Sequence record: NC_007817.1
Direction: 5' to 3' (one strand)
DNA length: 5,486 nucleotides
From: Escherichia phage ID2 Moscow/ID/2001
The translations under genes and the position numbers were made by a program. This document shows, one piece after another, positions 1,975 to 5,486 of this stretch. The notes below the pieces were generated by a model. The model saw only the letters and a program-made list of their open reading frames with translations, had not been told where the DNA came from and did no database searches. The number at the start of each line of letters is the position of its first letter. The stretch's first letter is position 1.

Positions 1975-2426
1975 ACTCTAACGAATCTGCTGTTGCCTTC
2001 GCTACTGCTCTCGCATCTATCAAGCTCATTCAGGCTTCATCTGTGCTGGACCTGACCGAAGACGACTTCGATTTCTTAACCCGTGACCGTGTATGGATTG
2101 CCACTGACCGCTCCCGTGCTCGCCGCGCTATTGAGGCCTGCGTATATGGTACATTGGACTTTGTCGGATACCCTCGCTTTCCTGCTCCTGTTGAGTTTAT
2201 TGCTGCCGTCATTGCTTATTATGTTCATCCCGTTAACATCCAGACAGCATGTCTTATTATGGAAGGCGCCGAGTTCACCGAAAATATTATCAATGGTATT
2301 GACCAGCCAGTTAAGGCCGCTGAACTATTCGCTTTTACCCTGCGTGTACGCGCCGGAAACACTGACCATGTTACACATGCAGAAACTAACGTACGTGAAC
2401 AATTACGTGCTCAAGGAGTAATGTAA
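1971..2426 (+). CDS. D: External scaffolding protein D
   Basis: 151-aa ORF (phiX174 D is about 152 aa). ATG overlaps the C stop as ATGA at 1971-1974. AAGGA SD at 1958-1962 with 8-nt spacing. Position and size fit the canonical gene order. Confidence 0.92.
   Translation: MNSNESAVAFATALASIKLIQASSVLDLTEDDFDFLTRDRVWIATDRSRARRAIEACVYGTLDFVGYPRFPAPVEFIAAVIAYYVHPVNIQTACLIMEGAEFTENIINGIDQPVKAAELFAFTLRVRAGNTDHVTHAETNVREQLRAQGVM
2146..2421 (+). CDS. E: Lysis protein E (MraY inhibitor), overprinted in the +1 frame of D
   Basis: Internal ATG 2146 of track ORF 2083..2421 gives 91 aa: MVHWTLSDTLAFLLLLSLLLPSLLIMFIP... The N-terminal transmembrane segment is nearly identical to phiX174 E (MVRWTLWDTLAFLLLLSLLLPSLLIMFIP) from memory, including Pro21. 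GAGG SD at 2133-2136 with 9-nt spacing. Confidence 0.85.
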   Translation: MVHWTLSDTLAFLLLLSLLLPSLLIMFIPLTSRQHVLLWKAPSSPKILSMVLTSQLRPLNYSLLPCVYAPETLTMLHMQKLTYVNNYVLKE

Positions 2427-2506
2427 TGGCTAAAGGCTCTCGTCGGCGTTCGCCGTCCCGCTCTAAAGGTGCTCGCCTCTGGTATGTTGGCGGCACACAA
2501 TTCTAA
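2426..2506 (+). CDS. J: Small basic DNA-binding/packaging protein J
   Basis: Not in the ORF track (26 aa). ATG 2426 overlaps the D stop as TAATG. Hand translation: MAKGSRRRSPSRSKGARLWYVGGTQF, stop TAA 2504-2506. Strong AAGGAG SD at 2413-2418 with 7-nt spacing. Highly basic, with the ARLWYVGGTQF C-terminus I recall from G4-type J. Confidence 0.85.
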   Translation: MAKGSRRRSPSRSKGARLWYVGGTQF

Positions 2507-2512
2507 TCTTCT

Positions 2513-2528
2513 AGGGGCTTCGGCCCCT
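2513..2528 (+). terminator. GC-rich hairpin with UUCG tetraloop in the J-F spacer; candidate partial terminator T_J or mRNA stabiliser
   Basis: AGGGGC-TTCG-GCCCCT: 6-bp GC stem with a TTCG loop, 7 nt after the J stop. Followed by CTATTT, which is only weakly U-rich. phiX174 has a leaky terminator at this position. Confidence 0.45.
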
Positions 2529-2545
2529 CTATTTAAGGATATAAA

Positions 2546-3829
2546 ATGTCTAACGTTCAAACTTCCGCTGACCGCATTCCTAACGACCTTTCTCACCTCG
2601 TCTTCGAGGCTGGTAAAATCGGCCGTTTAAAAACTATCTCCTGGACTCCAGTTGTCGCTGGCGACTCATTTGAAACTGAGATGGTAGGCGCTATTCGCCT
2701 TTCTCCACTCCGTCGCGGCCTTGCCGTCGACTCTCGCGTGGATATCTTCTCTTTCTATATTCCGCATCGTCATATCTATGGTCAAGAATTCATTGAATTC
2801 ATGAAAGCTGGCGTTAATGCCACTCCTCTCGCACCTGTTACTACTGCCTCTGGCTGGGATGCTTCTGCCTATCTTGGCACTATTCCATCCTCAAACCTCA
2901 AGGTTCCTAAATTCTTACATCAAGGATACCTTAATATTTACAACAACTACTTTAAGCCACCGTGGGATGCTGACCTTACATACGCTAACCCATCTAACAT
3001 GCCTGAACAGGATTATAAATGGGGCGTTCGTGTCGCTAACTTAAAATCTATCTGGACCGCCCCCTTACCTCCTAACTCTAAAACATCAGAGACTATGACC
3101 ACTGGCGCTACGTCTATTGATATTATGGGCCTGCAAGCTGCTTATGCTAAATTGCACACCCAACAAGAACGTGACTACTTCATGACTCGCTATCGCGATA
3201 TTATGAAAGACTTCGGAGGTCACACCTCCTATGACGGTGATAACCGTCCTCTGCTGCTTATGCGCTCTGAATTTTGGGCCTCTGGCTATGACGTCGACGG
3301 TACTGACCAATCCTCTTTAGGTCAGTTCTCCGGTCGCGTCCAACAAACATTCAATCACAAAGTACCTCGCTTCTATGTACCTGAACACGGCGTCATTATG
3401 ACTCTCGCCGTTACTCGCTTCCCTCCTACTCATGAAATGGAGATGCACTATCTTGTCGGTAAAGAATCTTTAACCTATACCGACCTCGCCTGCGACCCTG
3501 CTCTTATGGCTAACCTGCCTCCGCGCGAAGTATCCCTTAAGGAATTCTTCCACTCCTCGCCGGACTCCGCTAAGTTCAAAATTGCCGAGGGCCAATGGTA
3601 TCGCACGCAGCCTGACCGCGTCGCATTCCCTTATAACGCACTTGACGGCTTTCCTTTCTACTCTGCTCTGCCGTCTACTGACTTAAAACAACGTGTCCTA
3701 GTTAACACTGATAACTACGACGAAATCTTTCAGTCTATGCAACTCGCACACTGGAATATGCAAACTAAATTTAATACTACCGTCTATAGACATATGCCTA
3801 CGACTCGTGATTCAATCATGACGTCATAA
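2546..3829 (+). CDS. F: Major capsid protein F
   Basis: 427-aa ORF, the same length as phiX174 F. The N-terminus MSNVQTSADRIPNDLSHLVFEAGKIGRLKTISWTPVVAGDSFE matches G4/phiX F from memory. AAGGA SD at 2535-2539 with 6-nt spacing. Confidence 0.95.
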   Translation: MSNVQTSADRIPNDLSHLVFEAGKIGRLKTISWTPVVAGDSFETEMVGAIRLSPLRRGLAVDSRVDIFSFYIPHRHIYGQEFIEFMKAGVNATPLAPVTTASGWDASAYLGTIPSSNLKVPKFLHQGYLNIYNNYFKPPWDADLTYANPSNMPEQDYKWGVRVANLKSIWTAPLPPNSKTSETMTTGATSIDIMGLQAAYAKLHTQQERDYFMTRYRDIMKDFGGHTSYDGDNRPLLLMRSEFWASGYDVDGTDQSSLGQFSGRVQQTFNHKVPRFYVPEHGVIMTLAVTRFPPTHEMEMHYLVGKESLTYTDLACDPALMANLPPREVSLKEFFHSSPDSAKFKIAEGQWYRTQPDRVAFPYNALDGFPFYSALPSTDLKQRVLVNTDNYDEIFQSMQLAHWNMQTKFNTTVYRHMPTTRDSIMTS

Positions 3830-3840
3830 AGCCTATAACG

Positions 3841-3878
3841 TGACAGGGGGAAAAATTTTAATTTTTCGCCCCCTGTCA
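3841..3878 (+). repeat. Extended inverted repeat/hairpin in the F-G intergenic spacer; candidate complementary-strand origin and/or T_F terminator
   Basis: TGACAGGGGG (3841-3850) is the perfect reverse complement of CCCCCTGTCA (3869-3878). The 18-nt AT-rich interior (AAAAATTTTAATTTTTCG) can itself pair AAAAATT with AATTTTT. It is the only long perfect stem in the window and sits in the 99-nt F-G spacer. Confidence 0.6.
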
Positions 3879-3928
3879 GGTTGAACAAGCGCAAGCGCGT
3901 TAGCTGCCTAACTTAAAAGGAAATTCAA

Positions 3929-4468
3929 ATGTTTCAGAAATTCATCAAAAAACATAACGCTCCGTTAACTTCTCAGCCCGCTATCTCTAAGGCTGTTACT
4001 CCATCTATGACCGCCGCCCCTCTTGTCACTACACCTCTCGGCGTGTCTTCTACTCAATTATTCTTGGAACTTACAACCACTGCCGCCGCTGGCGGCTTCG
4101 CTTACGCTATCCGCGTAGACAATTCTAACCCTACTGATAATCAGGTCTTCTCCGTCTGTGCTCACATCACATCTGACGTGGACCCTAAATATATTGCGTG
4201 CCTCGTTCGCTTTGAGGTCACTGCTGGTACCACTCCTACCGCTATGCCTCCTGTCTATGATGCTTACCCTATCGCTGGTTACTATGACGCTGGCTCTTAT
4301 ACTGTTGAAGACTGCGCTACTATTCCTACTCACGCTGTCTCTTCTGGCAACGATGTATATGTCGGCCTTATGCTTTTCTCTCGCATGTGGCCCGTTGCAA
4401 AACTATCCGGTATCGCTTCCCTTAATCAGGTAAACAAGGAAGTAACCGTTCTCCAACCTCTTAAATAA
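3929..4468 (+). CDS. G: Major spike protein G
   Basis: 179-aa ORF in the canonical position after F (phiX174 G is about 175 aa). AAGGA SD at 3917-3921 with 7-nt spacing. Ser/Thr/Ala-rich composition typical of the beta-barrel spike protein. Confidence 0.9.
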
Positions 4469-4478
4469 GGTATTCTCT

Positions 4479-5486
4479 ATGTTTGGTGCAATCGCTGGCG
4501 GTATCGCCTCATCTCTTGCTGGCGGACTCATCAACAAAGCCTTTGGGGGCGGTCAATCCGCCTCCTCTACTGGCGTTCAAGGTGATGTCCTCGCTTCTGA
4601 CAATAACGTAATCGGTGCTAATGATGCTGGTATCAAATCCGCTATTCAAGGCTCTAATCCACCCAATGGCCAACAAGCTGCTCCCAATGCTATTTCGGGC
4701 GTTCTCGCTGACACTGGCAAAGACGCCCTATCTTCAATCACTGGCGCTGGCGTTAATAAACTTATGGAAAAAATCGGACTATCTAAAACTGCTGCTGATA
4801 AAGGCAAGGACACAAAGGATTATCTTGCTTCTGCATTCCCCGACCTCAACCCGTGGGAACGTGCTGGCGCTGGTGCTTCGTCTGCTGGCATGGTTGACGC
4901 TGGCTTCCAAAACCAAAAAGAATTAACCCGCATGCAGCTTGACAATCAAAAAGAAATCGCTAAGATGCAAAACGACACACAAAAGGATATCGCTGGTATC
5001 CAATCTGTCACATCCCGGCAAAATACTAAGGATGCTGTCTATGCTCAAAACGAGATGCTCGAATATAACCAAAAAGAATCTATGTCACGCGTTGGCTCTA
5101 TTCTCGAAAACACAAGCCTCACCAAACAACAACAAACTTCTGAAATTATGCGGCAGATGCTTACTCAAGCTCAAACCGCAGGTCAACATTTTACAAATGA
5201 CCAAATCAAAGAACTTACACGAAAAGTTGGTGCTGATATTGATTCTGTCCGCGCTAACACTGACCGTACACATGTAGAAACTCAACGCTCAAAACAGGAA
5301 GTTCAAAACTCTCGTTATGCTTCCTCACAAGTCGGTAAAACCGCTAAGGATGTCTCTAATGCAGTTACTGATACAGCTAGTTCTATTGTTGATTATTTTC
5401 GTGGTATTGATAACAAAGTGGCAGACGCTTATAACAACTATTTCAAAGATGGTAAATCCGACGGAATCGGGTCGAACATCAAATAA
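4479..5486 (+). CDS. H: Minor spike / DNA pilot protein H
   Basis: 335-aa ORF (phiX174 H is about 328 aa). Gly-rich hydrophobic N-terminus [25 protein letters not shown] followed by a long Gln/Lys-rich, coiled-coil-like region. TAAGG SD at 4466-4470 overlaps the G stop. The ORF stops on the last base of the window. Confidence 0.9.

Follow-up and report, generated by a model that had tools for sequence, protein, structure and literature searches.

Background

Protein J takes the place of the internal scaffolding protein B during genome packaging. A domain model divides the protein into basic N-terminal domains 0 and I, which tether the DNA, and a hydrophobic domain II, which binds the capsid (bioRxiv 10.1101/2025.09.12.675911). 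In the cryo-EM structure of the Salmonella phage PJNS002, residues Lys3, Arg7, Arg17 and Tyr20 of the 26-amino-acid J contact the single-stranded DNA, and J is hydrogen-bonded to two subunits of the coat protein F (PMC12328618). The difference in length between the J proteins of G4 (25 amino acids) and phiX174 (38 amino acids) has already been published, as have its effects on capsid binding and on the viability of J swaps (bioRxiv 10.1101/2025.09.12.675911). T_J is the canonical partial terminator of phiX174; its measured efficiency is approximately 40-60%, and its strength is near zero in one model fitted to RNA-seq.

The closest described J genes are those of the phages FL76, FL68 and ID204 (AGS81881.1, AGC34606.1). 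FL76 and ID204 belong to Gequatrovirus talmos, and both records annotate J as 'DNA packaging protein' at exactly 2426-2506. The window analysed here, meaning the whole stretch of 5486 nt from Escherichia phage ID2 Moscow/ID/2001 (NC_007817.1), is a complete circular microvirus genome of the genus Gequatrovirus, and whole-genome nucleotide similarity places it there. Identity is 97.7% over 100% of the sequence to FL76/FL68, 96% to ID204, 84-85% to ID18, WA14, ID12 and G4, and falls to 60-80% with phiX174-like and alpha3-like records.

The J of ID2 is identical to that of FL76, FL68 and ID204 in protein, in coordinates and in the gene itself (81/81 nt). The TAATG junction, the AAGGAG sequence and the downstream hairpin are also the same, although the genomes differ from ID2 by about 2-4% outside J. 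A tblastn search with the 26-amino-acid J found 12 records in the phage collection, a small yield owing to the very short query, and the identical peptide was present only in FL68, FL76 and ID204.

Identification of gene J

The list of open reading frames and its translation give MAKGSRRRSPSRSKGARLWYVGGTQF as the 26-amino-acid product of a frame that starts with ATG (Table 1). A preliminary description made from the sequence had given J as 26 amino acids with seven Arg/Lys and the ending ARLWYVGGTQF, and this was confirmed by translation and by counting residues. The basic residues are K3, R6, R7, R8, R12, K14 and R17, and there is no Asp or Glu. The N-terminal part is thus highly basic and free of acidic residues, with all Lys and Arg confined to residues 3-17. 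At the other end, KGARLWYVGGTQF is followed directly by the stop codon, in agreement with the Bullavirinae motif KG-[AS]-RLWYVGG-x-Q-[FY] at the extreme C-terminus.

The genes D (1971-2426), J and F (2546-3829) follow each other on one strand, which is the position of J in Bullavirinae, and the same order is found in FL76, ID204, phiX174, G4, alpha3, ID12, ID8 and WA14. The peptide matches the Pfam family PF04726 (Microvir_J) with 53.5 bits (E 3.6e-14), residues 1-26 covering profile positions 1-29 of 29, and so passes the curated gathering threshold of 30 bits for the whole-protein score. Homologous J chains are present in the PDB for alpha3 (1m06_J), G4 (1gff_3), PJNS002 (9k3n_J) and phiX174 (2bpa/1rb8).

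Table 1. Features in and around gene J of ID2 (positions in the window).
Feature	Position	Strand	Description and basis
TGA, closest upstream stop in the J frame	2396..2398	+	true bound on N-terminal extension; J-frame translation
Shine-Dalgarno sequence AAGGAG of gene J	2413..2418	+	within the 3'-terminal codons of D (and of E); 7-nt spacer; duplex with the 16S 3' end -8.0 kcal/mol
TAATG overlap of genes D and J	2424..2428	+	TAA at 2424-2426 ends gene D, ATG at 2426-2428 begins gene J; direct sequence reading
Gene J coding sequence	2426..2506	+	small basic DNA-binding / DNA-packaging protein; 26 codons plus TAA; Pfam PF04726, identity to FL76/ID204, PDB homologs
Codons 1-17, variable basic half MAKGSRRRSPSRSKGAR	2426..2476	+	all 7 Lys/Arg; putative ssDNA-contacting part
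Codons 18-26, conserved hydrophobic C-terminus LWYVGGTQF	2477..2503	+	putative anchor to coat protein F (inner surface)
J-F hairpin AGGGGC-UUCG-GCCCCU	2513..2528	+	folds as RNA at -13 kcal/mol, z -1.73; delimits the J expression unit on its 3' side

The length of the frame alone is not above chance because 23 open reading frames of at least 20 amino acids overlap the 1.2 kb around J. Frames of this size commonly arise by chance, which is the one point in favour of regarding the frame as accidentally open and the region as a plain spacer between D and F. The chance of this is vanishingly small, given the Pfam E-value, the homologous chains in virion structures and a motif that is invariant across genera, with codon changes in the C-terminal part that are mostly synonymous. 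Compared with G4, the last 14 codons of ID2 J have five synonymous differences and one non-synonymous; compared with phiX174, the last 13 codons have seven synonymous differences and one non-synonymous codon. The frame is therefore a real gene, judging by the Pfam score, the PDB homologs, the position between D and F and the mostly synonymous C-terminal changes. Positions 2426-2506 are virtually certain to be the J gene of a G4-like phage (genus Gequatrovirus, Bullavirinae), with a basic product that accompanies the single-stranded DNA genome into the procapsid. The reading frame, its family membership, its conservation, its Shine-Dalgarno sequence and the D-J junction are direct observations.

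Comparison with J in related phages

The J proteins of G4 (25 amino acids; PDB 1GFF chain 3) and of ID18/WA14 (26 amino acids) belong to the same genus and share with ID2 the seven basic residues and a C-terminal half of the form SKGARLWYVGGTQ[FY]. They differ in the N-terminal half, which has KKSIRRSGGK where ID2 has AKGSRRRSPSR, and the J of G4 ends with Y and is one residue shorter.

The alpha3-like J (Alphatrevirus, 24 amino acids; PDB 1M06 chain J) is short like that of ID2 and has RRSPSR-KGARLWYVGG in common with it; alpha3 J in 1M06 is the best PDB sequence match to ID2 J (E 8.5e-9). It differs in having eight basic residues, the ending SQF, genomes of 6.04-6.26 kb and a weak or different Shine-Dalgarno sequence (GTGGAG or ATGGAC).

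The J of phiX174 (Sinsheimervirus; PDB 2BPA/1RB8) has the KGARLWYVGG-QF anchor, and the TAATG junction, the AAGGAG sequence and the GGGGCTTCGGCCCC hairpin are as in ID2. As the preliminary description held, it is 38 amino acids long (NC_001422, 848-964) with 12 basic residues, and its 12 extra residues align to the basic N-terminal part, where they form a proline-rich linker and a second basic cluster.

PJNS002 (26 amino acids; PDB 9K3N) and the Escherichia phage Lilleen (28 amino acids) have, like ID2, a short J with seven basic residues and a MAK start, but the C-terminus is GSRLWYVGGSQF. PJNS002 matches ID2 both in J length and in genome length (5486 nt), the latter by coincidence; DNA identity to ID2 reaches only 71-78% in the three D-J-F segments compared. 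The taxonomy lines of both phages lack a genus, Lilleen being filed under Bullavirinae and PJNS002 only under Microviridae. Gene J is present at 2350-2436 in Lilleen (MK629526) and at 3443-3523 in PJNS002 (PQ479935) but is annotated in neither record, although the J of PJNS002 is modelled in PDB 9K3N. These recent GenBank records lack J because genes for 24-28 amino acids fall below the usual limits of gene callers.

The D-J junction and the start of J

The stop codon of D and the start codon of J have one base in common, and the same TAATG junction is annotated in FL76, ID204 and phiX174 (D 390-848, J 848-964). In G4 proper (NC_001420), a 42-nt spacer (2435-2476) separates D and J instead. 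In that genome AAGGAGTTATGTAATG is retained directly before J in non-coding DNA, the true end of D being AAGGTGTCATGTAA, and this retained sequence resembles a duplicate of the D-end/J-start junction of ID12. The genome lengths of ID12, ID8 and G4 differ in part through the D-J spacer region.

It had been proposed that no longer J is possible because the D stop lies immediately upstream. The conclusion stands but the reason does not, since the TAA at 2424-2426 is in the frame of D, another reading frame, and cannot bar an upstream start of J. What limits the N-terminus is the TGA in the J frame, together with the lack of a canonical upstream start. The J-frame translation of 2366-2509 reads ...RT*TITCSRSNVMAKGS..., and the nine codons between this TGA and the ATG (ACA ATT ACG TGC TCA AGG AGT AAT GTA, translated as TITCSRSNV) contain no ATG, GTG or TTG.

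These nine open codons leave some room for a longer J begun at a non-canonical codon such as the ATT at 2402-2404, but such a start is highly improbable. Besides the lack of ATG, GTG and TTG, the AAGGAG sequence is located 3' of that ATT and has the right spacing for the ATG at 2426. Every relative begins at the homologous Met right before the basic run, TITCSRSNV was not found joined to any J examined, and the solved J chains of short-J phages consist of 24-26 amino acids. Translation from the ATG at 2426 is consequently retained as the start of J.

The Shine-Dalgarno site

The AAGGAG sequence before J is the sole copy on either strand of the 5486-nt genome. The hexamer is not enriched, with one occurrence observed against 2.85 +/- 1.67 expected from shuffled sequences. 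It is found at an equal distance before J in phiX174, G4, ID12, ID18, WA14 and PJNS002, and weaker versions are found in the alpha3-like phages, ID8 and Lilleen. The site is probably functional, to judge from this conservation and from its retention in non-coding DNA in G4, and J would be translated from this AAGGAG, 7 nt upstream of its start. The TAATG overlap points to a possible coupling to the translation of gene D.

The site was previously regarded as the strongest in the genome, which is correct only with respect to the length of the contiguous match. Of the eleven genes, J pairs with the anti-Shine-Dalgarno sequence over the longest uninterrupted run at its start (6 nt), but gene A, with GGAGG at 48-52, has the more stable computed duplex (-9.9 versus -8.0 kcal/mol for J). 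Nor does the strength of the site follow from a need for 60 copies of J per virion, as had been suggested, because the sites of D, F and G are weaker (-5.6 to -5.9 kcal/mol) at equal or higher copy number. A note in the FL76 record gives 240 copies of D per procapsid and 60 each of F and G.

The start of gene A itself can be read in two ways (positions 32-64). The long open reading frame starts at ATG 32, which has no Shine-Dalgarno-like sequence (-0.6 kcal/mol), and in relatives the annotated start is ATG 62, which is preceded by the GGAGG at 48-52.

Length of J across lineages

The comparison covered J sequences taken from 34 genomes and contigs, plus the annotation of a further three (Table 2). 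A short J predominates, in five of six lineage groups, and the long J is peculiar to the phiX174 group.

Table 2. Length of J, number of Lys and Arg in J, and genome length by lineage.
Lineage	J (aa)	K+R	Genome (nt)
alpha3-like (Alphatrevirus)	24	8	6039-6259
G4, NC13, ID12, ID8	25	7	5529-5577
ID18/WA14 group	26	7	5486-5580
ID2 / FL76 / ID204	26	7	5475-5486
PJNS002 (no genus assigned)	26	7	5486
Lilleen (no genus assigned)	28	7	5342
phiX174, NC5, WA4	38	12	5386

The short J of ID2 had been taken as a quick marker of the G4-like lineage. All Gequatrovirus genomes examined do have a J of 25-26 amino acids with seven basic residues, and the charge carried per virion is 420 compared with 720 in phiX174, which would fit a J that is diagnostic of the lineage and reflects a tuning of charge neutralisation to its genome. 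Nevertheless, this interpretation is unlikely, and for length alone it is refuted. A short J is also present in Alphatrevirus, in PJNS002, whose genome is even of the same length, and in Lilleen, none of which is G4-like, and 26 amino acids cannot be the G4-like length when G4 itself has 25. In addition, J length is inverse to genome length, and the number of basic residues at clade level is uncorrelated with it.

Within this sample, the genera can be told apart by the last three residues of J and not by its length. The ending is TQF or TQY in Gequatrovirus, where alone it occurs and where it lends the marker idea some support; Sinsheimervirus has QQF, and SQF is common to Alphatrevirus, Lilleen and PJNS002.

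Length is also easily misjudged when open reading frames are called mechanically, as 37-amino-acid frames in two alpha3-like genomes illustrate. In these IMG/VR genomes (L015, 3134-3247; L016, 2942-3055), an in-frame ATG farther upstream, within gene D, opens a 37-amino-acid frame (MLVRN...CNMKKARRSPSR...), and the conserved J starts at an internal MKK. Automatic calling could here give a false 'long J'.

Scans of IMG/VR with the D protein and with back-translated ARLWYVGG gave only 12 and 19 loci, and no new length classes of J were found among them. One match, ASLWYVGG at 520-542 of IMGVR_UViG_3300032046_001411 (L024, 5642 nt), was rejected as J; its frame has neither an ATG nor a basic context and the match is probably due to chance.

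Charge of J and length of the genome

Each copy of J carries seven positive charges in ID2 and 12 in phiX174. With 60 copies per virion, a value taken from the literature, this corresponds to about 420 and 720 charges, and J would nominally neutralise approximately 7.7% of the 5486 phosphates in ID2 compared with 13.4% in phiX174. The suggestion that a short J means a different charge neutralisation therefore holds for phiX174 versus all other lineages, but not as a property specific to G4-like phages.

The comparison of basic-residue count with genome length, which had been put forward as a check, was carried out and shows no simple scaling (clade-level rho 0.05), the pattern being dominated by phiX174. 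The Spearman correlation between J length and genome length is -0.90, among lineages that are not independent.

Expressed as 60 x (K+R) per nucleotide, the charge ratio is 0.075-0.079 in all lineages but phiX174 (0.134), with seven Lys/Arg in genomes of 5.3-5.6 kb and eight in genomes of 6.0-6.3 kb. It is conceivable, though rather doubtful, that Bullavirinae outside the phiX174 group hold the charge of J at a set-point of about 7.5-7.9% of the genome phosphates; phiX174, at 13.4%, would then be an outlier with a derived excess of charge. Essentially one independent transition from seven to eight underlies the near-constant ratio, which may be a coincidence.

Two halves of J

Nine distinct J sequences are invariant at K3, R7, K14, G15, R17, L18, W19, Y20, V21, G22, G23 and Q25. 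The J of PJNS002 aligns with that of ID2 from 1-26 to 1-26 without gaps, and all four residues that contact the DNA in PJNS002 (K3, R7, R17 and Y20) are invariant in the alignment and present in ID2. On the basis of the domain model, the PJNS002 structure and these invariant residues, residues 1-17 can be assigned to DNA binding and residues 18-26 to anchoring in the capsid.

By homology, the Arg/Lys-rich residues 1-17 would bind the DNA and partly neutralise its phosphates. The invariant hydrophobic LWYVGG-Q-F would dock into coat protein F on its inner face and so tether the genome to the capsid. The location of J in the virion, at 60 copies on the inner surface of F and on the single-stranded DNA, is likewise carried over from homologs (PDB chains; cryo-EM of PJNS002, phiX174 and Evo-phi36). 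For ID2 we infer DNA binding, capsid docking and the 60-copy stoichiometry from such comparisons, and translational coupling from the overlap of D and J.

Origin of the N-terminal half

The N-terminal half of J differs from that of the closest Gequatrovirus relatives outside the FL76 group, and it might have been assembled by recombination, with an alpha3-like RRSPSR core and a start MAKG like that of PJNS002 and Lilleen joined to a C-terminal half of the ID18 type. RRSPSR is indeed common to ID2 and the alpha3-like J, ATG GCT AAA GGC is common to ID2 and Lilleen, and the final 45 nt (14 codons plus the stop) are 45/45 identical to ID18/WA14. However, RRSPSR is encoded by CGG CGT TCG CCG TCC CGC in ID2 and by CGT CGT TCC CCT TCT CGT in the alpha3-like genomes read. 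No recent transfer of this core is visible because the codons differ from those of every alpha3-like genome read, and a recent alpha3-like origin was rejected for lack of support.

The 3' end of J was also considered as a recombination patch, as its 45 identical nucleotides are flanked by regions of about 82% identity to ID18/WA14. It was rejected since the whole-genome alignment has longer identical runs elsewhere; runs of 50-72 nt identical between ID2 and ID18 occur at many other places, and the 45-nt run is no outlier. Moreover, the region is short, of low complexity and constrained to be basic, so that convergence is easy. A mosaic origin of J is accordingly improbable.

When ID2 is compared with ID18 and ID12 in 100-nt bins, the 5' half of J and the D-J junction fall into some of the most divergent ones (0.41-0.45 identity). 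Across the genome, the parts most divergent from these two phages are 2384-2441 (the D-J junction and the 5' half of J) and 3833-4470 (the F-G intergenic region and gene G). Identity per 100 nt is 0.2-0.65 in these parts and 0.85-0.97 in most of A/B/K/C and in parts of H.

The hairpin between J and F

A hairpin follows the J stop codon in every Bullavirinae lineage read, with stems that differ in sequence. The core (GGGGC-UUCG-GCCCC) is identical in ID2 and phiX174. The stems are GGGGC/GCCCC in ID2 and phiX174, GGGGGC/GCCCCC in ID12, GTGGGACC/GGTCCCAC in G4, ID8 and Lilleen, GGCCC/GGGCC in alpha3 and GAGCCC/GGGCTC in St-1. As far as pairing can be read from these stems, their differences across lineages would amount to compensatory change; the MAFFT/RNAalifold analysis captured only one covarying pair, owing to register problems.

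The J-F hairpin is probably the positional equivalent of T_J in phiX174 and may be the counterpart of this partial terminator. It was not flagged in a scan with a strict terminator consensus, and scans of the 5486-nt genome for Rfam families (at the gathering threshold) and tRNA found nothing.

In the phiX174 isolate CGGlo (AF299303, 5339 nt), a 27-nt deletion (958-970, compared with 962-991 in the genome L002) takes out the whole J-F hairpin. At least one phiX174 isolate can therefore do without the hairpin. The J of CGGlo also has the substitution F38L at the C-terminal residue.

Conclusions

Gene J of ID2 is an ordinary gene that is already known and annotated, and there is nothing new in its presence. 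J is a textbook part of phiX174-type virions, and the analysis has little import beyond correct annotation. The useful corrections are that J is normally short, with phiX174 as the exception, and that in the phages sampled the C-terminal tripeptide separates the genera. If the charge set-point were true, the charge of J per nucleotide would be a selected packaging parameter and not a by-product of ancestry.
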